DNA of 64,000 nt from Parcubacteria group bacterium M10-OD1-1 (GTDB taxonomy: Bacteria > Patescibacteriota > Minisyncoccia > Moranbacterales > UBA2206): NCBI GenBank assembly GCA_003056145.1, contig LSNL01000003.1, positions 137,993 through 201,992 on the forward strand. The letters are read 5' to 3'. Every line of letters starts with the position of its first letter. Position 1 is the stretch's first letter. Made by a program: the position numbers and the translations under genes. Of this stretch, positions 1,589-57,203 are shown in pieces. The notes beneath the pieces were generated by a model. It saw only the letters and a program-made list of their open reading frames with translations. It did not search any database and was not told where the DNA came from.

Positions 1589-3385
1589 ATGTTTAAAGAT
1601 ATGCACATTGCTTTAATGGGCAATCCCAATTCTGGTAAAACCTCCTTGTTAAATTCTTTAGCAGGGCTAAAATTACATGTGGGAAATTGGCCGGGGAAAA
1701 CTGTTGAACGTAAAGAAGCTAAAATTAATTTTGCAGGTCAAGAATTAAAAATTACTGATTTGCCAGGAACTTATAGCTTGTCGTCTTTTAGTGAGGAGGA
1801 AAAAATAGCTGGTAATTTTATTATTAAAAATAATCCTGAAGTTATTATTCAAATTGCAGATGTAAATTCATTAGAAAAGAGTTTGTTTTTATTTTTTGAG
1901 ATTTTAGCTTTAGGAAAAAAAGTTGTTTTAGCTTTTAATTTTAATAAAGAAAGTAAAGCTAAAGGCATAAAAATAAAAATTAGAAAGTTGGAAGAAATTC
2001 TAGGAGTGCCAATAGTAAAAATTGAAGCTAATACTGGAGAAAATAAAGGAGTTCTTTTAAAAACTGTTATTCATACTCAGAAAAATAAATTTCAAGAACC
2101 AACTTATTTAAAGGAGTTACTAAATAAAGATCAAAAAATTAGTCATAGTCGGGCAATGAAGTTTATCAAAAAAAATGTTTATCCTGCTTATAAAAATAAA
2201 AATAAAAATCAGAAATCAAAAAAAATTGATAGAATTATTTTAAATAAATTTACTGCTTTTCCTATCTTTTTAGCTTCAATGTTTCTTCTATTTCAGATAA
2301 CTTTCGTTGTTTCTACTCCAATAACTAAAGGAATAGGGTGGGTAGTTAGTTTTTTCTCTCATTTAATTACTAATAATTTTTCTGGTTGGCTAGCTTCTTT
2401 TTTTTCACAAGGAGTTTTAGGCGGTATGGGTTCGGTCTTATCTTTTGTTCCCTTAATCTTTATTTTATTTTTCTTAATTGCAATTATTGAAGACTCTGGT
2501 TACTTAGCGAGAATAATTGTTTTATTGGATAGGCTTTTTGCTAAACTGGGTGTTTCTGGGCGTTCGTTCATTCCGATGATTTTAGGTTTCGGCTGTAATG
2601 TCCCAGCTATTTTAGCTACTAGAACAATTAAAAATAGAAGAGAAAGAATGATTGCTATTTTCATCAATCCTTTTATATCTTGCTCAGCACGATTAGCTGT
2701 TTATGTTTTATTCACTGCTATTTTCTTTCCAGGAAAAGAAATATACGTTATTATGTTTCTTTATTTACTAGGAGTTGTAACTGCTTTAATGGCTACCTTA
2801 ATACTTTCTAAATTAGTTCCTGATAAGAAAGAAGAAGTTTTAATTATTGAATTACCACCATACAGAAGACCAACTCTAAAAAATGTTTTCAATCGTGCTT
2901 GGTGGCAAACGAGTTTATTCATCAAAAAGGCGGGAACGATTATTTTTCTAGCTATTATAGTAGTTTGGTTATTAGCTAGTTTACCACCAGGTACTCATTA
3001 TGGCTCTGTCGGCAGTTGGTTGGGAACAATTGGACAATGGGTCGCTCCTATTTTTAAGCCTCTTGGTTTTGGTAATTGGGTTTTTGCAGTGGCGCTTATT
3101 TTTGGATTGGTGGCCAAAGAAGCAATTATTGGAGCCTTAGGTACATTGACAGGAGCTGGTGGCGTAGGTTTGTTAGTAACCTTACCTCATTTGATATCTC
3201 CTTTGGGGGCCTTATCTTTTCTAGTTTTTGTTTCACTCTATATGCCTTGTTTGGCAACGATTGGAGCAATTAAATCGGAAACTAATCAATGGCGTTTTAT
3301 TATTGGACAAACTATAACGACAATTATAGTCGCTTGGCTTTTTGCTGGGGTAGTTTTTTATGTCGGTAAATTCTTAATGGGTTAA
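1589..3385 (+). CDS. feoB: ferrous iron transport protein B (FeoB), G-domain plus membrane domain
   Basis: N-terminal P-loop MGNPNSGKTSLLNSLAG and DLPGTYSL G-motifs, followed by a polytopic membrane domain; 598 aa. Confidence 0.9.
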   Translation: MFKDMHIALMGNPNSGKTSLLNSLAGLKLHVGNWPGKTVERKEAKINFAGQELKITDLPGTYSLSSFSEEEKIAGNFIIKNNPEVIIQIADVNSLEKSLFLFFEILALGKKVVLAFNFNKESKAKGIKIKIRKLEEILGVPIVKIEANTGENKGVLLKTVIHTQKNKFQEPTYLKELLNKDQKISHSRAMKFIKKNVYPAYKNKNKNQKSKKIDRIILNKFTAFPIFLASMFLLFQITFVVSTPITKGIGWVVSFFSHLITNNFSGWLASFFSQGVLGGMGSVLSFVPLIFILFFLIAIIEDSGYLARIIVLLDRLFAKLGVSGRSFIPMILGFGCNVPAILATRTIKNRRERMIAIFINPFISCSARLAVYVLFTAIFFPGKEIYVIMFLYLLGVVTALMATLILSKLVPDKKEEVLIIELPPYRRPTLKNVFNRAWWQTSLFIKKAGTIIFLAIIVVWLLASLPPGTHYGSVGSWLGTIGQWVAPIFKPLGFGNWVFAVALIFGLVAKEAIIGALGTLTGAGGVGLLVTLPHLISPLGALSFLVFVSLYMPCLATIGAIKSETNQWRFIIGQTITTIIVAWLFAGVVFYVGKFLMG

Positions 3386-3399
3386 TTTTTTAAAATTTT

Positions 3400-4371
3400 A
3401 TGCATATCTTTTATCCTTTCCAATGGTTGGCAGACTGGCTGACCTTTAAATTGTTGGCTTTAAATGTAGGCTCACATTTAGCGAATTCGGTTCAGTTTTT
3501 CTTTTTTGATTCTTTTAAAATTTTAGCTTTGATTGTGGTCATTACGCATTTAATGAGTTGGTTACGCTATTATTTGCCAATTGAAAAATTGCGAGATTTT
3601 TTGACCAAACATAAATTTTACGGGTTAGATTATTTCTTGGCAACTGTTTTTGGAGCTGTTACGCCTTTTTGTTCTTGTTCATCTATTCCACTTTTCATCG
3701 GTTTTATCGAAGCTGAAATTCCTTTAGGTGTAACTTTTTCTTTCTTAATTACTTCGCCTTTAGTTAATGAAGTAGCGTTAGCTTTATTCATTGGAATGTT
3801 TGGTCTCAAAATTACGGTCATTTATGTTTTGGCTGGGATAATTATTGGAATGGTTGGTGGTTTCGTGATTGGGAAGTTACATTTAGAAAAATATGTAGAA
3901 GATTTTGTTTGGAAAATGAAAAGTCAAAAACAAAATCCAGAAGCTAAAAAACTTTCTAGAATAAAAGTTTTTAAAATAATTTCCAACGAAGCTTTTGATA
4001 TTACTAAAAAAATATCTTTGTACGTTTTGGCAGGAGTTGGATTAGGGGCATTTATTCATGGTTATGTCCCGCAAGGATTTTTTGGAAAATATTTGCAAAA
4101 AGCTGGTTGGTGGGGAGTGCCATTAGCAGTTATTTTAGCCGTACCGTTGTATTCAAACGCCAGTGGGGTTATTCCTATTGTTCAGTCCTTAGTAACGAAA
4201 GGAGTACCGATTGGAACAGCTTTGGCTTTAATGATGGCGATTGTCGGTATTTCTTTACCAGAGGCTTTGATTTTAAAAAAGGTTATTAAATGGCAATTAC
4301 TAGCTATCTTTTTTGGGATAGTTACGCTAGGTATAATTATTATTGGATATCTATTTAATATATTTTTGTAA
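3400..4371 (+). CDS. DUF318/ArsP-family permease
   Basis: 323-aa polytopic membrane protein with the hallmark TPFCSCSSIPLF cysteine motif of 'predicted permease' PF03773. Confidence 0.65.
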   Translation: MHIFYPFQWLADWLTFKLLALNVGSHLANSVQFFFFDSFKILALIVVITHLMSWLRYYLPIEKLRDFLTKHKFYGLDYFLATVFGAVTPFCSCSSIPLFIGFIEAEIPLGVTFSFLITSPLVNEVALALFIGMFGLKITVIYVLAGIIIGMVGGFVIGKLHLEKYVEDFVWKMKSQKQNPEAKKLSRIKVFKIISNEAFDITKKISLYVLAGVGLGAFIHGYVPQGFFGKYLQKAGWWGVPLAVILAVPLYSNASGVIPIVQSLVTKGVPIGTALALMMAIVGISLPEALILKKVIKWQLLAIFFGIVTLGIIIIGYLFNIFL

Positions 4372-27914: not shown

Positions 27915-30900
27915 ATGTTTAAGGAAGTAGATTCAAGAAAAAAGTATTCAGAAATGGAGGAGGAAGTTTTAAAGTTTTGGGAAAATAATAAAATTTTTGA
28001 AAAATCAATAGAAAATCGTAAAAATGTTAAGCAATATAATTTTTATGATGGACCGCCTTTTGCTACTGGCTTACCACATTACGGACATATTGTCGGGACA
28101 GTTTTAAAAGATGTTATACCGAGATATTGGACAATGAAAGGACGAAGAGTTGAACGTCGTTGGGGTTGGGATTGTCATGGCTTACCAATTGAAAATATTG
28201 TAGAAAAAAAATTAGGCAGTAAAACTAAAAAAGAAATTGAAAAATTGGGTGTTGATAAATTTAATGAACTTTGCAGAAGCAAAGTCTTGGAATATGCCAG
28301 TGAATGGGAAAAAATTATCCCGCGACTTGGTCGTTGGGCGGATATGAAAAATGCTTATCGAACAATGGATTTGGATTATATGGAAAGTGTTTGGTGGGCT
28401 TTCAAACAACTATGGGAGAAGGATTTAATTTACAAAGATTATCGTTCAATGCATGTTTGTCCGCGTTGCGAAACCACTCTTTCACAATCAGAGGTTAGCG
28501 AGGGATATAAAGACGTGAAAGATTTAAGTGTAATAGCTAAATTTCATCTAAAGCCCAATCAAGAATGGTCAGGTGGAAAATATAAAACTAAAGATAGTGT
28601 TTATATTTTTGCTTGGACGACTACTCCATGGACTTTGCCAGGAAATGTAGCGTTAGCAGTGGGAGAAGATATTGATTATACGCTTATTGAAAAAGATAAC
28701 GAAAATTCCTGTAAAAAAGAAGGGTTTATTTTAGCTAAAAATAGATTGGGAGAAGTTTTTGGAGCAAATACAAATAAAAAAGTATTTTTACTTTCTGGCA
28801 AACATGCTTTTGCCTCTCGAGAATATTTTCCAAAACTAAAAAAAGATTTAGAGAAAGCTGGTTATGAAGTAACTATTATTGATCATATCAATCCATCAAG
28901 TCCTATTCTTAAAGATAATTTGGAAAATTTAAAAAAATATGATTTCAATAATGCTTATGTTATAACTCATTCTTTGGGTGCTAGCACAATTTTAAAATAT
29001 TTAAATGATTCTAGTATTCAATTATCGTCATTAACAATGATTGCCCCACCAAATCCTGGGATAAAATTTGTGTCAACAAATCCTCAATGGGTGAAAGAAT
29101 CTGGTTATCTTGATCTTACTATTGACTATAAAAAAATAGCTTCTCAAATTGCTAATCAGCCAGTAATTATCTATTCTGATGAAAATAGTATTTCTGAAAA
29201 CGATTTTAAACAGCTCGGTAAAAATTTGAATGCCCAATTAATCAAAGAAAATAACAAAGGACACTATTTTGAAATGGAAATAAATAATTATCCTGATTTT
29301 GATATTGTTAACAGTTTATCTAGCTATATAAATTACAAAATCATCAAAGAATTTAAAGGCTCTGATTTAATTGGTCTAGAATATGAGCCGTTGTGGAATT
29401 TATATGCCGACGATGAAAAGTTGGAAAATAGAGAAAATGGTTGGAAAATTTACGGAGCAGATTTTGTAACAACAGAAGAGGGCACTGGCGTTGTTCATAT
29501 TGCTCCAGCTTTTGGTGAAGACGATATGGAACTAGGAAAAGAAAAAAAACTTCCTTTTGTGCAACATGTGGGGATGGATGGTGTAGTCAATGACAGCGTG
29601 GAAGCTATTGGTGGTTTAAATGTGAAACCAATTGATAATCCGCAAGCTACGGATGTAGAAGTGATTAAATATTTAGCTAGTAAAGGTTTATTATTTCACA
29701 AGGAAAAATACGAGCATAGTTATCCACATTGTTGGCGTTGTGATACTCCATTGATAAATTATGCAACTAGCTCGTGGTTTGTAGCGGTAACAAAAATTAA
29801 AAAAGAATTATTAAAAAATGCTGAAGATATTAATTGGTCACCAGAACATATTAAAAAAGGTCGTTTTGGAAAATGGTTGGAGGGTGCGCGTGATTGGTCA
29901 ATTTCTCGTCAGCGTTTTTGGGCTAGCGTAATACCAGTTTGGGAATGCGACAAATGCGGCAAACGAAAGGTTTTTGGCTCTGTAGCAGAATTAGAAAAAG
30001 AAGTTAATCTTGGCAAATTTTATATTATGCGTCATGGTGAAGCAGAATCTAATGCGAAAAAAATATATGATACAAATATAAAGTCAGAAATACATTTAAC
30101 AACCAAGGGTAAAATGGATGTTAGTAAGGTAGCTAAAAAAATAAAGGATATAAATATTGATATAATAATATGTTCTGATTTTATGCGAACCGAAGAAACA
30201 GCTGAAATTGTAGGTAAGGAAATTGGTGTTAAAGTAATTAAAGATAAAAGGATAAGAGAGATAAGCGTGGGTGATTTAGATGGTCAACCATATGACATGG
30301 AAATAATTAAACGTAGAAATAATGGGGAAGATTTATCATATCCAAATGGTGAAAATTGGACAGATGTAAAAAAAAGAATTGATGATTTTTATCGTGATAT
30401 AAGTTTTAAGTATAGGGACAAAAAAATTCTAATTGTTTCTCATGGTGATGTTTTATTAAGCATAGAAGCTTCATTGGCTAGCGGAAATTTTTTGGAAAAT
30501 ATAAAAAAAATTATTAATAATAACGCCTATATTCAAAAGGCAGAATTAAGAGAGTTGAGGCATAAAGTTGTAGATATCCATAAGCATATTGTTGATAAAA
30601 TAACTTTTCCGTGCGAAAAATGTGCCAATTCAATAAGTTCAGAACAAACTGGCGTAATGAAAAGAATTCCAGATGTCTTAGATACTTGGTTTGATAGTGG
30701 TTCAATGCCTTATGCACAAAAACATTACCCATTTGAAAATAAAGAAGAATTTGAGAATATTTTTCCGGCGGATTTTATTGCTGAAGGAATAGATCAAACT
30801 AGAGCTTGGTTTTATTATCTGCACACTATTGCCGGTGGAATTTTTAATAAGCAAGCTTTTAAAAATGCGATTGTAAATGGAATAGTTTTAGCAGAAGATG

Positions 30901-32084
30901 GAAAAAAGATGAGTAAAAAATTACAAAATTATCCTGATCCAATGAAAATGGTGGAAAAATATGGAGCTGATCCGTTGCGTTTTTACCTTTTGCAATCGCC
31001 AATTGTTAGTGCTAATAACTTAAATTTTAGTGAAAAAGATTTGAGTGAAATTTCTCGGGGGACATTTAGGATGCTTTGGCAATCTTATAGTTTTTTTGTG
31101 ATGTATGCTAATATTGATAAATTTAAAATTCCAGGTTCAAAATTTGAAATTGGTAGTAATTTATTGGATAAATGGATTGTTTCTGAATTACAAATGTTAA
31201 TTAGGGGTATTAATGAACAGATGGAAAAATATCAAGTAATGCAAGCTACTAGACTATTTATTTCTTTTGTGGATAATCTTTCCAATTGGTATATCCGTCG
31301 TTCACGAAAAAGATTTTGGAAAAGTGAAAATGATAATGATAAAAATGAGGCGTATACAACTTTACACTATGTTTTAGCAGTGTTATCAAAATTAATGGCT
31401 CCGTTTGCACCGTTTGTAGCGGATGAAATCTATAGAAATTTAACTGGCAAAGAATCGGTGCATTTAGCTGATTTTCCGGTAGCGAATGAAAAATTAATCA
31501 ATGAAAAATTGAATACAGAGATGAAAAAAACACGGGAGATAATTAGCGAAGGGTTACAACTGCGGGCACAAGCTAAAATAAAAGTAAGACAACCGTTAGC
31601 ACGGTTATGTCTAAATTTCTCTTCAAATAATTATAAAATATCAGCTTGGTATAATGATAAAATCTGGGAAAAAATGGAGAATATTATGAAAGAAGAGTTA
31701 AATGTTAAAAAGATAGTTTTTAAAACGAGCGTAGGGAATAGCTTTAAAAACGAAGGAGATATTATTTGGAATAAAGATAAAATAGTTGGGTTGGATATTA
31801 AAATGACAGAAGAATTAGAAACAGAGGGACAAGCGCGAGAAATTATTCGTCATATTCAGCAAATGCGAAAAGAGGTTGACTATCAGCTTGACGATCGTAT
31901 AGAAATAGGCTATAGTGGAATGTCTGAAGTTTTTGAAAAATTTAACGATTTAATTACTAGAGAAACTTTGGCAATTAATACGGAACTTTTACAACAAAAT
32001 AAACTAAATCAAGAATTTGACTTGAAAAAGGAATTCAAGATTGATGAAAAAAAATTGATTTTAGCAATAAAAACTATAAATTAA
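27915..32084 (+). CDS. ileS: isoleucyl-tRNA synthetase (eukaryote-like type 2) with two inserted extra domains
   Basis: HIGH (PHYGHIV), WTTTPWTLPGN, editing motif GTGVVHIAPAFGEDD, KMSKK and DTWFDSGSMPYAQ are all present. About 170 aa after WTTTPW (nt 28776-29280) carry RBBP9/YdeN-type serine hydrolase motifs (HSLGA ... GHYF). About 170 aa (nt 30012-30494) carry a histidine-phosphatase RHG motif (IMRHGEAESN ... VSHGDV), inserted between CDKCG and CEKCAN. Total length is 1389 aa. Confidence 0.9.
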   Translation: MFKEVDSRKKYSEMEEEVLKFWENNKIFEKSIENRKNVKQYNFYDGPPFATGLPHYGHIVGTVLKDVIPRYWTMKGRRVERRWGWDCHGLPIENIVEKKLGSKTKKEIEKLGVDKFNELCRSKVLEYASEWEKIIPRLGRWADMKNAYRTMDLDYMESVWWAFKQLWEKDLIYKDYRSMHVCPRCETTLSQSEVSEGYKDVKDLSVIAKFHLKPNQEWSGGKYKTKDSVYIFAWTTTPWTLPGNVALAVGEDIDYTLIEKDNENSCKKEGFILAKNRLGEVFGANTNKKVFLLSGKHAFASREYFPKLKKDLEKAGYEVTIIDHINPSSPILKDNLENLKKYDFNNAYVITHSLGASTILKYLNDSSIQLSSLTMIAPPNPGIKFVSTNPQWVKESGYLDLTIDYKKIASQIANQPVIIYSDENSISENDFKQLGKNLNAQLIKENNKGHYFEMEINNYPDFDIVNSLSSYINYKIIKEFKGSDLIGLEYEPLWNLYADDEKLENRENGWKIYGADFVTTEEGTGVVHIAPAFGEDDMELGKEKKLPFVQHVGMDGVVNDSVEAIGGLNVKPIDNPQATDVEVIKYLASKGLLFHKEKYEHSYPHCWRCDTPLINYATSSWFVAVTKIKKELLKNAEDINWSPEHIKKGRFGKWLEGARDWSISRQRFWASVIPVWECDKCGKRKVFGSVAELEKEVNLGKFYIMRHGEAESNAKKIYDTNIKSEIHLTTKGKMDVSKVAKKIKDINIDIIICSDFMRTEETAEIVGKEIGVKVIKDKRIREISVGDLDGQPYDMEIIKRRNNGEDLSYPNGENWTDVKKRIDDFYRDISFKYRDKKILIVSHGDVLLSIEASLASGNFLENIKKIINNNAYIQKAELRELRHKVVDIHKHIVDKITFPCEKCANSISSEQTGVMKRIPDVLDTWFDSGSMPYAQKHYPFENKEEFENIFPADFIAEGIDQTRAWFYYLHTIAGGIFNKQAFKNAIVNGIVLAEDGKKMSKKLQNYPDPMKMVEKYGADPLRFYLLQSPIVSANNLNFSEKDLSEISRGTFRMLWQSYSFFVMYANIDKFKIPGSKFEIGSNLLDKWIVSELQMLIRGINEQMEKYQVMQATRLFISFVDNLSNWYIRRSRKRFWKSENDNDKNEAYTTLHYVLAVLSKLMAPFAPFVADEIYRNLTGKESVHLADFPVANEKLINEKLNTEMKKTREIISEGLQLRAQAKIKVRQPLARLCLNFSSNNYKISAWYNDKIWEKMENIMKEELNVKKIVFKTSVGNSFKNEGDIIWNKDKIVGLDIKMTEELETEGQAREIIRHIQQMRKEVDYQLDDRIEIGYSGMSEVFEKFNDLITRETLAINTELLQQNKLNQEFDLKKEFKIDEKKLILAIKTIN

Positions 32085-35593: not shown

Positions 35594-35962
35594 ATGAATA
35601 TTAAAACTATTAAAAATGATAGAGATTATTTTTGGACTAATCATTCTAAATATAAATTATTGGAATATAATGTAAGTCCTAATATAGTTAAGTTGGTAAT
35701 TAAAAGTCCCGAGAGAATTGAGGAGGGTGTAGCTCCAGAAACAATTGCTGTAATGAAAAGAAAGGATACTAAAAAAACACAAAGAGAAATTTGGGTAATG
35801 TATCAAAAAAATAAAAAAAAGAAAGCTCAAAAAACTAAACACATTTCTATTTTATCAAGAATGAAAATTATTAGTGTTTGGATTTATCCTGGTACTAGTC
35901 CAAAAGGAAAAGAAATTTTTATTCCAGATGATGTTTGGGAAATTATCAATGAGAATAAGTAA
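35594..35962 (+). CDS. hypothetical protein (122 aa, basic)
   Basis: No recognisable catalytic motif; K-rich central region. Confidence 0.4.
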   Translation: MNIKTIKNDRDYFWTNHSKYKLLEYNVSPNIVKLVIKSPERIEEGVAPETIAVMKRKDTKKTQREIWVMYQKNKKKKAQKTKHISILSRMKIISVWIYPGTSPKGKEIFIPDDVWEIINENK

Positions 35963-37030: not shown

Positions 37031-38886
37031 TGAAAAAAGAAGAAACTGAAAAAATTTTAGATTCAATTAATTTTCCTCAAGATATTAGAAATCTTCCAGA
37101 AAAAAAAATTCCTCAACTTTGCGATGAAGTCAGAGAATTTCTTATTGAAAGCATTGCTGAAACAGGTGGACATTTTGGCTCTAATTTAGGAGTAGTAGAA
37201 TTAACAGTGGCTTTGCACAGAGTTTTTGATACCCCGAATGATTTATTAGTTTGGGATGTAGGTCATCAAGCTTATCCTCATAAAATTCTAACTGGAAGAA
37301 AAGGTAGATTAAAGACTATTAGAAAAAAAGGAGGTTTAGCTCCTTTTCCCAAAAGAGAAGAGAGTCAATACGATAGTTTGAGCGTGGGTCATACTAGTAC
37401 TTCTATTAGTGCTGCCTTAGGGATGACCGTAGCTCATCAAGGAGAAAAAGAAGCTCCTCAAGTTGTTGCAGTAATTGGTGATGGAGCGTTAGCTGGAGGG
37501 ATGGCTTTAGAAGCTCTTAATCACAGCGGGGATATAGAAGCTGATTTACTAGTTATTTTAAACGATAATAAAATGTCTATTTCTCCAAATGTAGGTGGAA
37601 TTAGAAAACATTTAACTAGATTAATTTCATCACCTCTGTATGTTTATTGGCACACCAAAGGAAATAAATTTCTCCGCCGAGTTCCAATGTTAAGAGAATT
37701 TATTCGTCGAGCCGATAAGTATATAAGAGGAATGATTACTCACGGAACCCTTTTTGAGGAGTTAGGTTTTAAATATTACGGTCCAATTGATGGTCATGAT
37801 ATTAAAACTCTTTTAGATGTTTTAATTAATTTAAAAAAAGTTAAAGGTCCAAAATTTTTACATATTATTACTAAAAAAGGCAAAGGTTATTTACCAGCCG
37901 AGCAAGATGAATTTTCTCTTCATGCGGTTAAGCCTTTTGATGTAGCGACTGGTCAAATAAAAAAAACAAAACCAAAAGTTATTTCTTATTCAGATGTTTT
38001 TTCTGATTGGATTTGTGCTAAAGCAGAAAAAGATAACAAACTTCATAGTATCACTCCAGCTATGGGTGAAGGGTCTGGCTTAGCTGAGTTTAGAAAAAAA
38101 TTTCCTGAACGTTTTCATGATGTCGGAATTGCTGAACAACACGCCGTAACTTTTGCTGTGGGTTTGGCTTGTGAAGGGAAACGACCAGTAGTTTCAATTT
38201 ATTCCTCTTTTTTACAAAGAGCTTATGACCAATTTATTCATGATGTTGCTTATCAAAACTTAAATATTCTTTTTGCTATTGATAGAGCAGGAATAGTTGG
38301 ACCAGATGGGGCGACACATAATGGAAGTTTTGATCTTTCTTTTATGCGGATTGTTCCTAATTTGATTGTTATGGTTCCAGCTAATAAAAATGAGTGTTAC
38401 TCAATGCTAGAAACAGGATATAGATACAAAGGACCAGTGGCGATTAGATACCCTAGAGGAGGAGAAAAAGGTGAATATAATCAGAAGGCTTATCTGATTG
38501 AAATTGGTAAAGCTAAGATTATTCAACAAGGAACTAAGATAGCAATTTTATCTTTTGGAGCTATATTAGAAAAGACTAAAAAAGTAGCTCAAAAACTAGA
38601 GGCTACTTTAATTAATATGCGATTCGTTAAACCTTTAGACGAAGAATTACTAAAAAATTTAGCTCAAGAATATGATTTTTTTATTACAGTAGAAGACAAT
38701 ACTATTTTAGGTGGAGCTGGAAGTGCAGTTAATGAATTTGTTTTAAATAATTCGTTAGAAGTTAAAGTGAAAAATATTGGACTGCCTGACAAATTTTTGG
38801 GAGCTGGAACTAGAGAGGAAATTTTAGCTGATAATAATTTAAATGAAGAAAAAATTTTAAAAACAATAGAAAAGTTTATTTCATAA
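37030..38886 (+). CDS. dxs: 1-deoxy-D-xylulose-5-phosphate synthase
   Basis: GGHFGSNLGVVELTVALH and TPP-binding GDGAL...N motifs; 618 aa; start overlaps the rlmN stop (ATGA). Confidence 0.9.
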   Translation: MKKEETEKILDSINFPQDIRNLPEKKIPQLCDEVREFLIESIAETGGHFGSNLGVVELTVALHRVFDTPNDLLVWDVGHQAYPHKILTGRKGRLKTIRKKGGLAPFPKREESQYDSLSVGHTSTSISAALGMTVAHQGEKEAPQVVAVIGDGALAGGMALEALNHSGDIEADLLVILNDNKMSISPNVGGIRKHLTRLISSPLYVYWHTKGNKFLRRVPMLREFIRRADKYIRGMITHGTLFEELGFKYYGPIDGHDIKTLLDVLINLKKVKGPKFLHIITKKGKGYLPAEQDEFSLHAVKPFDVATGQIKKTKPKVISYSDVFSDWICAKAEKDNKLHSITPAMGEGSGLAEFRKKFPERFHDVGIAEQHAVTFAVGLACEGKRPVVSIYSSFLQRAYDQFIHDVAYQNLNILFAIDRAGIVGPDGATHNGSFDLSFMRIVPNLIVMVPANKNECYSMLETGYRYKGPVAIRYPRGGEKGEYNQKAYLIEIGKAKIIQQGTKIAILSFGAILEKTKKVAQKLEATLINMRFVKPLDEELLKNLAQEYDFFITVEDNTILGGAGSAVNEFVLNNSLEVKVKNIGLPDKFLGAGTREEILADNNLNEEKILKTIEKFIS

Positions 38887-39271
38887 ATCCAAAGTGTTTA
38901 AGTGTCGGAAGAATATTGGGTGCCAAATTTTCTTTTTTTAAATCTTCTAATAAAATCCACTCAGACTTTCTAATATCTTGACCTAGTTTAATTCTTCCTA
39001 TTCTTTTAGCCAGATAATGAACTAGAATAACATCAACTTTTTCGTCTTTAATTTCTTTAATAGTATGGAAGAGAAAAGGAGTTGGATTTAAAATTTTTAT
39101 AGTTATTCCTATTTCTTCTTTAGCTCTTCGGATAGCTGTTTCCATTAAAGATTCTCTTTCCTTTCTTTGTCCTCCGCAAAATTTCCAAAATTTTGTATCA
39201 CCGTGTTGATTAAGAATAACTTTGTTACTTTCAACAATAACTGGACCAGAAGCGATAATTATTTTTGACAT
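38876..39271 (-). CDS. NUDIX hydrolase
   Basis: Nudix box GGQRKERESLMETAIRRAKEEIGI; converges on and overlaps the dxs 3' end. Confidence 0.85.
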   Translation of the reverse strand: MSKIIIASGPVIVESNKVILNQHGDTKFWKFCGGQRKERESLMETAIRRAKEEIGITIKILNPTPFLFHTIKEIKDEKVDVILVHYLAKRIGRIKLGQDIRKSEWILLEDLKKENLAPNILPTLKHFGFMK

Positions 39272-39316
39272 AATAGTTTAATTTAAAAATAATCAATATG
39301 TTTAAATATATTTTAC

Positions 39317-39366
39317 CATATAAGTATCTTTTAATCGATAGCCGAGTTTTCGGTAGTAATCACGGA
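39317..39366. repeat. 50-bp direct repeat copy 1 (duplicate of the ELP3-like gene 3' end)
   Basis: CATATAAGTATCTTTTAATCGATAGCCGAGTTTTCGGTAGTAATCACGGA is identical 50/50 to 40381..40430. Confidence 0.9.
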
Positions 39367-39566
39367 TATTCTTTAAGTTGAGAATATTTTAAATAAACCA
39401 ATAAGTAACTAATAATTAATTTGATAGCTTGATAAAAGGCTGAAAATATGTATATAATATATCAATACGCTGAATATTAGCGTAAAGTTCTTTAACTAGA
39501 AGGCGAGTCTAGTGCTTTGGTATAATACTAAGGCGAGAGAAGAGCCAATATCGGAGGAGAGTTGAC

Positions 39567-40232
39567 ATGGGAAAGGAAATATGGGTTGAAAGCTTTGTGA
39601 GTGTCCTTATAAAAGATCTTGACGAGCTAGGAGTAGATAAAGGAAAACTAAAAGATTATAGAGTAATAGCTCGTTTGTGTGCTGAAAAAATTGCGAAAGT
39701 GGCTAATAGTAAAAAGAATGATTTAAGGGAGGTGCCACCTTTACTCAGTTTATCAGTTGACGTTGCAATCATACCCGATCGAGATGAAGATTTTATTGTT
39801 AAAAAAAGCTTTGTAAAATATTACGGAAGTAATTTTAATAAATGGTTTTTAGATAAGGTGGAGAGTCCGATATCTGGAGTCACTTTGGGTGCTTGTCTGC
39901 TTATGAGCCGTTCAATGGATCCAGGAATTATTTCCGAACTTGGAGGGAATCTTAAAGCGAGGATAACCCTTGCTGATATAGACCACGCCAAAAAAATCGG
40001 AGCTCTAGAAAAAAGTTGTATCTATATTGGTTATATGGAAGATGAGATTCGTTTTCTGTCCGATAAGCTTTTTATGTATATAAACGAGAAAGGCGAGAAA
40101 AAAGTTCTTCGAGCTGTTTATTTCAATTGGATTAATGGCGACGGGTGGTTTGTAGATGCTTATCCAATCAATGATTTGAAGGGTTGGTATAGGGGGCGTT
40201 GGATAATCTCTCCTCTAAATTTTAGGTCTTAA
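39567..40232 (+). CDS. hypothetical protein (221 aa) on the DR-flanked cassette
   Basis: Own extended -10 promoter (TGGTATAAT at about 39513) and GGAGGAG SD; visibly GC-richer than its neighbours; no motif recognised. Confidence 0.55.
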   Translation: MGKEIWVESFVSVLIKDLDELGVDKGKLKDYRVIARLCAEKIAKVANSKKNDLREVPPLLSLSVDVAIIPDRDEDFIVKKSFVKYYGSNFNKWFLDKVESPISGVTLGACLLMSRSMDPGIISELGGNLKARITLADIDHAKKIGALEKSCIYIGYMEDEIRFLSDKLFMYINEKGEKKVLRAVYFNWINGDGWFVDAYPINDLKGWYRGRWIISPLNFRS

Positions 40233-40255
40233 TTTTTTAGTTCTTTGCTTCTTTG

Positions 40256-40300
40256 ACTCTTTGGAAAAATTTCTTCGGAAACATCCAAAGAGTTTTTTTA
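40256..40300 (+). terminator. rho-independent terminator after the cassette gene
   Basis: ACTCTTTGGA ... TCCAAAGAGT 10-bp stem (inner UUCG-type sub-hairpin) followed by TTTTTTT. Confidence 0.6.
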
Positions 40301-40365
40301 TTTAAAAGTATATTAAGTGATATTTTTTGTGCATACTGTGGAAGATTAGAAAAAGGATTAAAAGA

Positions 40366-41955
40366 TTATAGCTTCTTAATCATATAAGTATCTTTTAATC
40401 GATAGCCGAGTTTTCGGTAGTAATCACGGACACCTACCCCAGAAATGATTGCGATCTTATTAATTTTGAATTCTTTGCGAGCAATTTTCTCAGCTTCTTT
40501 GATTAGTTTTCTCCCTAGCCCAATATGCTGTGGGGAAGTTTTATCTTTTTTGTCTATCCGTGCGAGTTTTCCATAGGTGTGTACTTCTCGGATGATAGCG
40601 GAGTTTTGAAGTGTCTGGATAAAATGATCGTTATTATTTTTAGAGGGAATGCGTAAACGTAAAAGAGCAAAAAGTTTTTTCTTATCTGGAGAAACGAATC
40701 GTAAAAATATTTCCTTACCACCTGAGGCATCGTAGTTAATTCTATCTAAAATAATCTGTTCTTTAATTTTGTATTTCGCTCCAACTTCACGGCAACGAAT
40801 ACAGGGACATTTTGATTGAGGAATGATAATTTGTCGAAGATTAGAAACTTTTGGTCCAGCGATAATAGATGTTTCTGGAATATCACGCACAATTCTGGCA
40901 ATGCGGACATAGGGAACGATAGTCTCGTTTTTTATTTTAAGAACCAATCTTTTAAAAACTTTGTCTGAAAGTGGTTTGTAATTACCTCTTTTCCATAAGT
41001 TATACAAAAAACTACTTTTAACAACTACGGTCGGATAAATTTTAAGCATATCTGGTTGGAAATTAGAATTTTTAAAAAGTTCGTGAAACATTTTAAAATC
41101 TCTGACGGGAGTACTCTTAGGAAGTCCAGGCATCATATGATAGTTTATTTTGAAACCGGCGTCTTTAAGGAGTTGAGTGGCACGGATTGTTTCGTCAGTT
41201 AAATGTCCACGTTTATTAAATTTTAAAACATCATCAAAAATACTTTGCACTCCTAATTCTACCCGAGTGCATCCAAGATTGCGAAAATTTTTGATGTCTT
41301 GTTTATTAATATAATCTGGACGAGTTTCCAGCGTGAGCCCAATAATTCGGTGTTTAGCTTTTTCATTTCGGCTTTGTTCTTTTTGGAGATTACTTTTATA
41401 TTTTTTTATTTTTTTATTTTTGTGGTTATAATCATTGGCTGCACGAAAACATTCAGTAACAAATTTTTTTTGATAGGTCTTTGGTAAATAGGAAAAAGTT
41501 CCGCCCATAACGATAAGTTCAATCTTGTCAGTAGCATGTCCGTTGAGTTCTAACGCACGAATTCTATTTTGCACTTGGCGACGTGGAGAAAAGTGTGCGG
41601 TGATAGCACGCATAACTGCTGGTTCATTGGAAAGGTAACTTTTAGGCATACCTTTTTCGTTTGGACAATAAATGCATTTTCCCGGACATGAATAGGGTTT
41701 AGTGAGAACTGCAACGACGGCCACTCCAGATTGGGTTCGGATTTTTTTGCTCAAGAGATTTTTTTCCAAAAGAGGATTAGGAGCTATTTCTTTTTTAATA
41801 ACTAATTTATTGTAAACTTCTCTCAGGTCGGCATTAGTTGGTAAGGGAAGAGAAAGCTTCTTAGATATCTTTTTTTTGAGACGTAAAAAATCATTCAGAT
41901 TTTTGGGCTGTTCTTGTGTTGCTAACTTTATAAATTTGTCATATCCTTTAAGCAT
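40366..41955 (-). CDS. ELP3-family radical SAM/GNAT protein (tRNA U34 modification, ELP3 homolog)
   Basis: Radical-SAM core CPGKCIYCPN and C-terminal GNAT acetyltransferase region (HIGLGRKLIKEAEKIA); 529 aa. Confidence 0.8.
   Translation of the reverse strand: MLKGYDKFIKLATQEQPKNLNDFLRLKKKISKKLSLPLPTNADLREVYNKLVIKKEIAPNPLLEKNLLSKKIRTQSGVAVVAVLTKPYSCPGKCIYCPNEKGMPKSYLSNEPAVMRAITAHFSPRRQVQNRIRALELNGHATDKIELIVMGGTFSYLPKTYQKKFVTECFRAANDYNHKNKKIKKYKSNLQKEQSRNEKAKHRIIGLTLETRPDYINKQDIKNFRNLGCTRVELGVQSIFDDVLKFNKRGHLTDETIRATQLLKDAGFKINYHMMPGLPKSTPVRDFKMFHELFKNSNFQPDMLKIYPTVVVKSSFLYNLWKRGNYKPLSDKVFKRLVLKIKNETIVPYVRIARIVRDIPETSIIAGPKVSNLRQIIIPQSKCPCIRCREVGAKYKIKEQIILDRINYDASGGKEIFLRFVSPDKKKLFALLRLRIPSKNNNDHFIQTLQNSAIIREVHTYGKLARIDKKDKTSPQHIGLGRKLIKEAEKIARKEFKINKIAIISGVGVRDYYRKLGYRLKDTYMIKKL
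40381..40430. repeat. 50-bp direct repeat copy 2 (inside the 3' end of the ELP3-like CDS)
   Basis: Identical to 39317..39366; encodes ...RDYYRKLGYRLKDTYM of the ELP3-like protein on the - strand. Confidence 0.9.
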
Positions 41956-51679: not shown

Positions 51680-52753
51680 TTATAATTGAATATAGTTTTG
51701 TCCGCCAATATTTTTAATCCAGCCTTTAATTTCTAGCATTGCTAAATTAGAAGCGACAATGGCAGTTTGAAGTTTAACTAGTTTTGCAATATTGTCAATG
51801 TGAATAGGCGTGGAGGATAAAATTTTCATTATTTTTTCTTCTTCTAAATTAGCAGGTTTCTGAGTTGGAGTTACCGGGGATGGAATAAAAGAAAAATTTA
51901 TTTCTTCTAAAATATCTTTTAAACCGGTAACTACCTTAGCCCCGTTTTTAATCAAATTATTAGTGCCTTTAGACTCTGGAGATAGAATAGAACCCGGAAC
52001 AGCTAAAACTTCTCTATTATATTCTAACGCCATTTGAGCAGTTATTAAAGTTCCACTTTTTTCTCCAGCTTCTATTACTAGGGTGCCAAGAGTCAAACCA
52101 GCTACAATTCTATTTCTAGCAGGAAAAGTCATTCTTCCCGCTGGAGTTTCTAATGGATATTCACTTAATAAAGCCCCATTTTGGATTATTTCTCTAGATA
52201 AATTAAAATTATATCGAGGATAGATATTTCTATCGTCTAGGCTGTTACCTAAAATAGCCAGAGTCTTTCCTTCTCCTTGGATAGCTCCTTGATGAGCAAA
52301 AGCATCAATTCCTAAAGCCATACCACTAACAATAATTATTCCTAGTTTTGCTAATTCTTTAGCTATTTTGAATGCAACTTGAGAGCCGTAAGGGGTATAT
52401 TTACGAGCACCTACAATAGCTAACATTGGCGATTGGTTAAAACTAAATTTACCGCGTTGATATAAAATATAAGGGGGATTATGAATTTCTTTTAGAAGGG
52501 TGGGATAATTTTTATCAGAGAGAGCAATTATATTAATGGATTCCTTTTGTAACTTATCCCATTCTTCAATAGGGTTGATTTGTTTTCTGGCAAAAACTAT
52601 TTTTTCAGCTAATTTTTCACTAATTGGAGCATTCTTTAAAGCAGTTAAATTAGCTTTCCAAATATTTTCAGGAGAGGCAAATTGATTAAGCAGAAGTCTA
52701 ATTTTTTGAGAGCCAACACCAGAAATTTTATTGAGGGCGTTAAGATATTTCAT
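51680..52753 (-). CDS. dprA: DNA processing protein DprA/Smf
   Basis: Rossmann-like DprA core (GMALGIDAFAHQGA) with N-terminal SAM-like and C-terminal winged-helix regions. Confidence 0.85.
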   Translation of the reverse strand: MKYLNALNKISGVGSQKIRLLLNQFASPENIWKANLTALKNAPISEKLAEKIVFARKQINPIEEWDKLQKESINIIALSDKNYPTLLKEIHNPPYILYQRGKFSFNQSPMLAIVGARKYTPYGSQVAFKIAKELAKLGIIIVSGMALGIDAFAHQGAIQGEGKTLAILGNSLDDRNIYPRYNFNLSREIIQNGALLSEYPLETPAGRMTFPARNRIVAGLTLGTLVIEAGEKSGTLITAQMALEYNREVLAVPGSILSPESKGTNNLIKNGAKVVTGLKDILEEINFSFIPSPVTPTQKPANLEEEKIMKILSSTPIHIDNIAKLVKLQTAIVASNLAMLEIKGWIKNIGGQNYIQL

Positions 52754-55310: not shown

Positions 55311-57203
55311 ATGAGTGAAATAAATTTTTTTGCCAAAACTAACTTTAGGAATCAAGAACAAATTTTTGGTATCAAGAGAGACGATCGACGTCGTCATGCT
55401 TATATAATCGGAAAGACCGGAATGGGAAAGTCTAGTTTATTAGAAAATATGGCCATTCAAGATATTAAAAATGGTGAAGGTGTTTGTGTTGTAGATCCTC
55501 ATGGAGAATTTGCTGAAAAAATGGTGCGAGCTATCCCTGAAAATAGAATTAATGATGTTGTTTATTTTAATCCAGCTGATTTAGATTTTCCTATTGCTTT
55601 TAATATCTTAGAATCTGTTGATGAAGATAAAAAAAACTTAGTCGCTTCAGGAATGATGGGAGTTTTTAAAAAGATTTGGCCGGATGTTTGGAGTCCGAGA
55701 ATGGAATATATTTTGAATAATACTATCTTAGCTTTATTGGACTATCCTGGCTCAACGATGTTGGGTGTTAATAGGATGATGAGTGATAAAGATTTCAGAA
55801 AAAGAGTTTATCCAAAAATAAAAGATCCTGTGGTAAAATCATTTTGGATTAATGAATTTGACAAATGGGAGGATAGATTCAGAAAAGAAGCTGTAGCTGC
55901 TATCCAGAACAAGGTAGGACAGTTTCTTTCTTCCCCGGTTATTAGACATATTATTGGACAGCCGAAATCAACTATTGATATGCGAGAAATTATGGATAAC
56001 AAGAAGATATTAATAGTTAATCTTTCAAAAGGAAAAATCGGTGAAGATGCTATGCATCTTTTGGGAGGAATGGTAATTACAAAAATTCAATTAGCAGCCA
56101 TGGGGAGAGTTGATATCCCTGAAGAAAAACGAGATGATTTTTATCTATATGTAGATGAATTTCAAAACTTTGCTACCGAATCATTTGCTAACATCTTGAG
56201 TGAAGCCAGAAAATATAGATTGAATTTAATTTTGGCTCATCAGTATATAAATCAATTGATTTTTGACGGTAATGCAACAGTTAAAGATGCTATTTTTGGT
56301 AATATTGGAACCATAATTTCTTTCCGAGTAGGAGCTGATGATGCTGAATATTTAGAAAGGGAATTTGAACCAGTTTTTATAGCAAGTGATATTGTTAATT
56401 TATCTAAATACCAGGTTTATTTAAAATTAATGATTGATGGAATTGCTGGCGATGCTTTTTCAGCGGCAACTTTACCACCAATTGACGTAACTAGATTAGA
56501 GGGTAACACTCAAAAAGTTATAGAAGCTTCCAGAGGTAGATATGGTGGAGTTAGAAAAGAAATTGAAGAAAAGATTGCTCGTTGGAGTGGAATGTTTGAT
56601 TTCGATGAAATAGAAAAAATGAAGAAAAAAAATATTATAAATCAGAAATCCAGGTTAATTAACAAAAATAATTTATCAGAAAAAAAAGAAGATTTTAATA
56701 TTAACCAAACAAAAAAAAATCTTAATCAGACAGCAAAAAATGATTTAGTTACCTCAGAAACTAACAGTAAGCTTAAAAATAGACAATTATCAGAAAATCA
56801 ACAATTAACAGAGAATAGAGAATTGCACGATGCTGTGTGTGGTACTTGTGGAGGGGAAATAAAAGTTCCTTTTAGACCAGATCCTCAACGACCAACTTTT
56901 TGTCGGGAGTGCTTAAAAGATTATCAACGAGCTAAAGCTAGAGATGAAAATGAAAAAAGAGAAAAAGGAAGAGTTCAAGATAAAGATTATCAGAAAAATA
57001 GAAATGATTCATTGAAGAAAAAATATTCTCAAGCGGAAAGTTCTCGTCCAGTAGCTTTTATTTCACGAGAAAAACCAATAAGCTTAAATCAGGTTAGCCA
57101 TATAGGACCTAAGAAATTTGGATCTCGGAGAAACAAAGTAGGTGTTAATTTAAAAGAAGTCAAAAAATTGATGGATAAAGCTCAAAATAATAAAGATGAA
57201 TAA
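55311..57203 (+). CDS. FtsK/HerA-superfamily ATPase (VirD4/TraG-like or HerA-like) with C-terminal zinc ribbon
   Basis: Walker A IIGKTGMGKSSLL, VVDPHGE motif, Walker B FYLYVDEFQNF, SEARKYRLNLILAHQ motif; C-terminal CGTCGG...CRECL; 630 aa. Confidence 0.55.
   Translation: MSEINFFAKTNFRNQEQIFGIKRDDRRRHAYIIGKTGMGKSSLLENMAIQDIKNGEGVCVVDPHGEFAEKMVRAIPENRINDVVYFNPADLDFPIAFNILESVDEDKKNLVASGMMGVFKKIWPDVWSPRMEYILNNTILALLDYPGSTMLGVNRMMSDKDFRKRVYPKIKDPVVKSFWINEFDKWEDRFRKEAVAAIQNKVGQFLSSPVIRHIIGQPKSTIDMREIMDNKKILIVNLSKGKIGEDAMHLLGGMVITKIQLAAMGRVDIPEEKRDDFYLYVDEFQNFATESFANILSEARKYRLNLILAHQYINQLIFDGNATVKDAIFGNIGTIISFRVGADDAEYLEREFEPVFIASDIVNLSKYQVYLKLMIDGIAGDAFSAATLPPIDVTRLEGNTQKVIEASRGRYGGVRKEIEEKIARWSGMFDFDEIEKMKKKNIINQKSRLINKNNLSEKKEDFNINQTKKNLNQTAKNDLVTSETNSKLKNRQLSENQQLTENRELHDAVCGTCGGEIKVPFRPDPQRPTFCRECLKDYQRAKARDENEKREKGRVQDKDYQKNRNDSLKKKYSQAESSRPVAFISREKPISLNQVSHIGPKKFGSRRNKVGVNLKEVKKLMDKAQNNKDE

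Follow-up and report, generated by a model that had tools for sequence, protein, structure and literature searches.

A one-gene insert between 50-bp direct repeats at the 3' end of an ELP3-like gene in a Moranbacteria genome: a probable remnant of an integrated element with a former diversity-generating retroelement target

How did a single gene of foreign composition come to lie between two perfect copies of a 50-bp sequence, one of which is the coding 3' end of a housekeeping gene, in a genome of the candidate phyla radiation (CPR, Patescibacteria)? The locus that raises this question is found in Parcubacteria group bacterium M10-OD1-1, a member of the Moranbacteria, in a 64,000-nt stretch of contig LSNL01000003.1 (assembly GCA_003056145.1, forward-strand positions 137,993 to 201,992); this whole 64-kb stretch is called the window, and all positions are counted from its first letter. 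The insert separates an ELP3-like gene from a gene for a NUDIX hydrolase and carries one gene, here called the cargo gene. With moderate confidence, the locus is interpreted as the non-autonomous remnant of a site-specifically integrated element that carried a module of a diversity-generating retroelement (DGR), now fossil. The locus fits a decayed integrative element in every testable feature except the recombinase.

The repeated 50-mer (CATATAAGTATCTTTTAATCGATAGCCGAGTTTTCGGTAGTAATCACGGA) is present in exactly two direct copies in the window with 0 mismatches, as an earlier note on this DNA had described, and the number of such matches expected in shuffled sequence is 0. The copies are spaced 1,064 bp apart and enclose an insert of 1,014 bp between the ELP3-like gene and the NUDIX gene (coordinates in Table 1), and the 50-bp block of identity has abrupt edges at either end. 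Copy 1 is non-coding, lies 30 bp from the start of the NUDIX gene and would read ...DTYMVKYI*. Copy 2 is coding and gives ...RDYYRKLGYRLKDTYM of the ELP3-like protein, which ends in ...DTYMIKKL*. The same layout recurs within the species, in three or more further assemblies or samples.

Relatives of the ELP3-like protein, with up to 73% identity, belong to the Moranbacteria/Moraniibacteriota and other Parcubacteria. The gene order methyltransferase / ELP3 / NUDIX / (DXS) / RlmN is kept in about 35 of these relatives, with the NUDIX gene 0-100 bp past the ELP3 stop, and ELP3 directly followed by NUDIX is the ancestral state. No homologue of the cargo is found near ELP3 in any of the 80 relative loci (0/80), nor within 6 kb in the approximately 35 genomes in which the pair is adjacent. 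The ELP3 C-termini of the relatives (YMVKLI*, YMVKKI*, YMVKNL* and others) follow the pattern YMVK.[LI], and the alternative C-terminus ...YMVKYI, which the earlier note had read from copy 1, matches this pattern. The displaced tail VKYI* shares a mean of 10.1/15 nt with the relatives' tails versus 5.97 for a null of random four-codon-plus-stop 15-mers from the window (P 0.0004). Since the ELP3 ends of the relatives resemble VKYI*, the tail beside copy 1 is of the ancestral type and 39367-40380 is the insert.

The insert supplies a tail of its own. The 15 nt between the repeat and the present ELP3 stop (ATTAAGAAGCTATAA, IKKL*) equal the ancestral tail in length and share a mean of 9.7/15 nt with the relatives' tails versus 5.97 +/- 1.29 for the same null (P 0.0026), and the IKKL tail occurs verbatim in 3 of the 47 relatives. 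Because both tails are of the ELP3 type, the ELP3 duplication is really 65 bp, made up of 50 identical nucleotides and two differing genuine tails. Such a two-tail arrangement is expected of single-crossover integration into a gene 3' end with a replacement end and would not follow from a simple staggered-cut target-site duplication. The earlier proposal of an insertion into the 3' end of the ELP3-like gene, with a duplication resembling attachment (att) sites, is supported by these comparisons.

The cargo is a single gene of 221 aa on the + strand, preceded by a promoter-like TTGATA-18-TATAAT (39429-39458), an extended -10 box TGgTATAAT (39518-39526) and the Shine-Dalgarno sequence GGAGGAG (39553-39559), and followed by a terminator; the gene, its extended -10, Shine-Dalgarno sequence and terminator are as the earlier note had listed them. 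At the DNA level, the 5' flank of the insert does not resemble what lies upstream in the homologous loci. Among the 47 genes of the window, the cargo ranks first both in GC (0.366 versus a gene mean of 0.306, z 2.2) and in GC at third codon positions (GC3, 0.302 versus 0.194, z 3.1), and its synonymous codon usage is the most atypical (z -3.0). The visibly higher GC reported earlier stands, but the excess is modest, and some neighbouring genes equal the GC of the cargo in 300-bp sliding windows.

The earlier note had seen no recognisable motif in the cargo protein, a view that homology searches do not support. Apart from a 99% variant, a 5.8-billion-protein index yielded a single homologue, P0002 (53% identity, E 8e-49), and a family profile run against 1.84 billion representatives gave 828 clusters at 50% identity, with most of the listed members being about 200-250 aa long. 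The family shares the C-terminal block VLRAV.V.W..DGW.V.A.SV..P..W..G.QVFSRNS, of which the cargo alignment covers VLRAV...W...GW...W..G. The gene of P0002 lies in a canonical DGR (locus L001), in which the variable repeat (VR) is the last 112 nt of the gene (2832-2943), the template repeat (TR) lies 484 nt downstream (3316-3427) with 85% identity, and all VR/TR mismatches fall at TR adenines; a bAvd gene follows (PF22296, E 2e-15). Adenine-only VR/TR pairs are also found in the close homologues at L094, L095 and L096, and L094 has in addition a reverse transcriptase (RT) gene (RVT_1, E 4e-22). At L095, an ORF (open reading frame) with an IS200-like Y1 transposase domain (1600-2250) comes right after the TR, where Avd and RT would be expected.

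The cargo is 45-53% identical to these DGR target homologues. DGRs of CPR/Patescibacteria with variable proteins of the C-lectin fold have been described as DGR clade 2 (Roux et al. 2021, PMC8144416). Of 95 family members scanned with Pfam, none had a meaningful match, and the family profile matched no PDB sequence; by homology, the cargo family is a large family of putative DGR targets for which Pfam has no model. The suggestion that the cargo might be a defence or toxin gene found no backing, as the cargo has no match in Pfam, PHROGs, PADLOC (0 families at E <= 1) or NCBIfam and its relatives are DGR targets. The cargo protein also has no match in phage or plasmid records, and neither the 50-mer nor the cargo family was found in IMG/VR.

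The similarity to DGRs extends beyond the coding sequence. The hairpin at 40255-40294 is the element that follows the VR in L001, L092, L094, L095 and L096. Five loci share its core (AAATTTCTTCGGAAA) unchanged, and 15/15 base pairs are formed in all five aligned, three pairs with compensatory changes. Similarity then continues to a TATACT-like box (TGTGCATACT), which in intact loci precedes the TR-containing RNA region, and is gone by about 40345, that is, approximately 270 nt short of the TR start of the intact loci and about 40 bp before copy 2. Among L001, L094, L095 and L096, the roughly 270 nt of non-coding DNA from hairpin to TR are strongly conserved (e.g. ATGCGATA.GCA.CGG...GGAGAGTATTC...), despite the targets of these loci being only about 45-50% identical to the window protein, and this conserved spacer probably belongs to the DGR RNA.

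The remaining DGR parts are missing from the window. Adenine-tolerant scans found no TR for 40060-40232 there, and the same scan recovers the pairs in L001, L094, L095 and L096. No YxDD-type RT ORF is present in the six frames of the window, no small four-helix-bundle ORF that could encode Avd adjoins the cassette, and no TR-derived ORF appeared among the cargo homologues. Tests for RT, TR and Avd showed all three to be absent from the window, and the locus is therefore not a DGR. Moreover, the C-terminus of the cargo reads WIISPLNFRS, in place of the G.QVFSRNS motif that 83 of the 95 family members keep. The cargo has the look of a one-time DGR target whose diversification has ceased, and, since TR, Avd and RT are gone, it would be a frozen, formerly hypervariable ligand-binding protein.

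A second ORF of the window also resembles DGR neighbourhoods. The 122-aa ORF at 35594-35962, between GlmS and RlmN and 3.4 kb from the cassette, has no Pfam match and shares 34% identity (E 4e-22) with the ORF directly after the DGR RT in L094 (8516-8953). It is not present in the ELP3 loci of any of the 80 relatives and may be a second accessory or DGR-associated leftover.

Under the favoured reading of a decayed integrative element, a circular element would have entered the ELP3-like gene of this Moranbacteria genome through a single (Campbell-type) crossover within the gene's last 65 bp, most likely catalysed by a site-specific recombinase encoded elsewhere or since lost. The attP of the element would have mimicked the ELP3 3' end, with 50 bp identical to the host and its own four-codon tail and stop, and the attP-type junction would have read ...CTTCTTAAT + 50-mer + TATTCTTTAAG.... 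The original ELP3 3' end (50 bp plus VKYI*) would then have been pushed 1,064 bp away, beside the NUDIX gene, and the ELP3-like gene would have stayed intact, now ending in IKKL*, because the element brought its own mimic of the ELP3 3' end. TR, Avd, RT and any integrase would have been lost later, leaving the target gene (predicted to be expressed), the hairpin and the promoter stub. The circularity of the intermediate and the recombinase type are our inferences, as is the shrinkage of a formerly larger element by internal deletion.

Table 1. Features of the insert and of its two flanking genes in the window
Feature	Position	Strand	Basis or remark
NUDIX hydrolase gene	38876..39271	-	Pfam NUDIX, E 4e-12; ancestral immediate downstream neighbour of ELP3
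Displaced original ELP3 tail, VKYI + TAA, now non-coding	39302..39316	-	Sequence reading; fits YMVK.[LI]*
Direct-repeat copy 1, attL-like, ELP3 pseudo-3'-end	39317..39366	.	ELP3 homology stops sharply at 39366
Insert 5' flank, promoter-like sites and Shine-Dalgarno	39367..39566	+	Sequence inspection
Cargo gene, 221 aa, homologue of DGR variable (target) proteins	39567..40232	+	N-terminal helical region and putative C-type-lectin-like C-terminal core
VR-equivalent segment (VLRAV...), static, partly degenerate	40104..40229	+	Aligns to VRs of L001, L094, L095, L096
Conserved hairpin (UUCG-capped inner stem), then T-run; terminator	40255..40301	+	Same element as the post-VR hairpin of homologous DGRs
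Promoter stub TGTGCATACT	40328..40337	+	Aligns with TATACT box of L001, L094, L095, L096; promoter function putative
Insert-borne ELP3-type tail, IKKL + TAA, ends the present ELP3 ORF	40366..40380	-	Tail comparison with relatives
Direct-repeat copy 2, attR-like, ELP3 coding 3' end	40381..40430	.	Sequence
ELP3-like radical-SAM/GNAT gene, integration target, 529 aa	40366..41955	-	Pfam Radical_SAM, Radical_SAM_C, weak GNAT

Several results weigh against the reading of a decayed integrative element. The earlier statement that no integrase or transposase is present holds for the whole window, in which no transposase, recombinase or integrase was found among the ORFs; these are recognisable housekeeping genes (partly checked with Pfam). 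In addition, no circular junction (excision product) was found within the species, and no larger parent element bearing the cassette was recovered. The mosaic of 50/50 identical nucleotides followed by a tail differing at 8/15 is not predicted by a simple integration model. The intact DGR in L094 has no flanking repeats around it, and the other homologous DGR loci are likewise not so flanked. A second ELP3 3' copy was found in 0 of 66 relatives, and ELP3 is no demonstrated recurrent att site. As for the empty site, a comparison that the earlier note had proposed, it exists in other species (about 35 relatives with ELP3 and NUDIX adjacent), but none was found within the species, so that the refuting pattern named in that note is seen in part only: contigs with an identical NUDIX protein are all occupied or broken at the repeat, no empty-site ELP3 allele (...YMVKYI) was found in the ELP3 90% cluster, which consists of two sequences that both end in IKKL, and every genome or sample of the species on record carries the cassette.

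Two further observations concern the surroundings of the insert. ELP3 has the second highest GC3, which was considered as a sign of its co-transfer but rejected as evidence, as ELP3 GC3 exceeds that of the neighbours in 83% of relatives. The ELP3-NUDIX spacer of L025, L027, L035, L044, L050 and L087 contains unrelated insertions, none with flanking repeats; the insertions seen in relatives include a 344-347-aa ORF, an ORF with a DnaG-type zinc ribbon, a 247-aa membrane-like ORF and a GIY-YIG ORF, which suggests that this spacer is a variable spot.

The lack of an integrase in the window would be no difficulty for a route without any dedicated recombinase, the main rival, which we nevertheless consider rather unlikely. 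A related CPR cell with a DGR just downstream of its ELP3 could have been the source of DNA that was taken up and then either circularised and inserted through one RecA-dependent crossover, or joined by homology-facilitated illegitimate recombination with the ELP3 3' end as its anchor; the 50-bp duplication would be a by-product. The insert does contain a genuine ELP3 3' end, as DNA excised from beside an ELP3 gene would, the duplication is found in this species only, and a DprA gene and a gene resembling type IV secretion system (T4SS) coupling proteins are present in the window. However, 50 bp is at the lower limit for RecA-mediated exchange, the block of identity is sharp at both ends, and a donor with 8/15 differences in the tail should not be 50/50 identical beside that tail; moreover, no relative with a DGR next to ELP3 is found among the 80 loci.

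Of the two genes just named, the one resembling coupling proteins (55311-57203) encodes 630 aa, with T4SS coupling-protein domains of the TrwB/TraG type and a treble-clef zinc finger, and the DprA gene (51680-52753) lies near it; both bear on the uptake or transfer of DNA in this CPR genome.

The cargo might also be a live remote DGR target, or some other functional adaptive or defence gene, served by a DGR elsewhere in the genome, in which case the islet would be a functional accessory module. This is improbable, despite an intact ORF with predicted promoter, Shine-Dalgarno sequence and terminator, despite the retention with compensatory changes of the hairpin that is required downstream of VRs, and despite DGR RTs of this clade being very common in Moranbacteria. 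Of the more than 8,000 matches to a DGR RT query, none of the best 120 fits the contig of the window. Variation within the species can be read both ways. Over 12.4 kb, 13 single-nucleotide polymorphisms (SNPs) separate the window from GCA_003056095.1, of which 5 lie inside the 666-bp cargo gene (39882-40097), four of them clustered at 39882-39949, and 4/5 are non-synonymous (T106A, A109T, N128S, E177D). However, all five are outside the VR, which is without SNPs across L004-L007 and identical in all samples. In addition, the C-terminal motif proximal to the IMH (initiation of mutagenic homing) site is degenerate, and the TR missing from the 64 kb, the lack of a TR-derived ORF among the homologues and the lack of a PADLOC match all tell against a cargo still in service.

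In a further variant, the 1,064-bp unit would be a live minimal non-autonomous cassette, consisting of an attP mimic and a gene for a DGR-type binding protein and moved among CPR genomes by an unlinked recombinase. We give this a low probability; if true, DGR target modules would circulate as att-bearing single-gene cassettes, independently of the retroelement. Integron cassettes and Xer/dif modules were considered as well; inspection by eye only showed neither an IntI nor any feature resembling attC or dif.

A 50-bp target-site duplication might also have been left by a transposon-like or target-primed insertion, through the filling-in of staggered cuts 50 bp apart, but this is highly improbable. 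Such an insertion would account for the perfect direct repeat and the sharp boundaries, but a plain target-site duplication leaves unexplained why the 15 nt inside the insert beside copy 2 are an ELP3-type tail. No terminal inverted repeats were found at the ends of the insert, and the window has neither a transposase nor an RT. No bacterial DNA transposon is known to make 50-bp duplications. The repeat is also not a product of a DGR RT, since it is without adenine mutagenesis.

Least likely of all is an assembly artefact, in which a free 1,064-bp circle or a contig of another strain was threaded into the chromosome via the shared 50-mer. In its favour, k=31 graphs are unable to resolve the repeat and all Logan contigs break there, but NUDIX, repeat and cassette are joined in 3 NCBI assemblies from different projects and cassette, repeat and ELP3 in 2, at 99.9% identity. 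GCA_003056095.1 (L007) has the identical layout at that identity, and a contig of GCA_006243105.1 (L008) runs from NUDIX through copy 1 into the cassette. In several runs, the Logan k=31 contigs break at 39346 and span 39337..40410, which are the unitig limits imposed by the 50-bp repeat. Because the layout is identical in other assemblies and the Logan contigs break exactly at the expected limits, an artefact, which the earlier note had named as a possible refutation, is very unlikely.

Two contig ends within the species fall elsewhere. The contig of GCA_006243105.1 ends at 39881, adjoining the cargo SNP cluster at 39882-39949. Logan contig L006 (SRR6439370), which covers 39337-40311, stops just past the hairpin, and its equivalents from other runs reach 40410; this stop may reflect lower coverage, or part of the population may have a cassette with another right end.

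Away from the cassette, the isoleucyl-tRNA synthetase gene of the window (27915-32084) encodes a protein of 1,389 aa. Inside its catalytic domain, this protein carries a histidine-phosphatase insertion (His_Phos_1, aa 702-886, E 3e-33) as well as a stretch weakly resembling serine hydrolases (aa 309-450).

Generally, hardly anything has been described of integrative elements or their att sites in CPR/Patescibacteria, and this locus offers a clean, datable insertion into the 3' end of a housekeeping gene. It suggests that the target gene of a DGR can persist as a fixed gene, with expression predicted, after the retroelement itself is lost, and such orphan targets matter for counting or interpreting DGR-like C-lectin proteins in reduced genomes. 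As well, the family of 828 clusters and the post-VR hairpin could be used for annotating DGR targets. Current understanding is not overturned by these results, which concern known kinds of element in a little-studied phylum.

Compared with known systems, the locus differs from insertion sequences and transposons in having no transposase and no terminal inverted repeats, and in a duplication of 50 bp that extends into an ELP3-like tail. The CPR DGRs resemble it in that the cargo is 45-53% identical to targets that have an adenine-mismatched TR beside bAvd and RT, and in the same post-VR hairpin; unlike them, the window has no TR, Avd or RT, the VR is invariant and the terminal motif degenerate, which makes the cargo an orphan target and the locus not a DGR. 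The nearest named category might be the cis-mobilizable element (CIME), defined in Streptococcus as an integrase-less element retaining attL and attR (PMC5704250). Like CIMEs, the insert is a short cargo flanked by direct repeats at the 3' end of a conserved gene, has no recombination genes and presumably arose by deletion from a larger element. Unlike them, it is 1 kb long with one gene, sits in a CPR host and has no known cognate integrase or parent, and its mobilisation is hypothetical.

The best-known parallel for the effect on the target gene is given by prophage e14 and phage 21, which integrate inside the icd 3' end of E. coli and supply an alternative 3' end, so that the gene stays functional and the original icd 3' end remains, as a pseudo-fragment, on the far side. 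Both are complete prophages that encode an integrase, and their 3' mimic measures about 165 bp, whereas the mimic here is 65 bp and the element would be a one-gene remnant. As in icd, the integration would be into the 3' end of a protein-coding housekeeping gene, with a replacement end provided by the insert.

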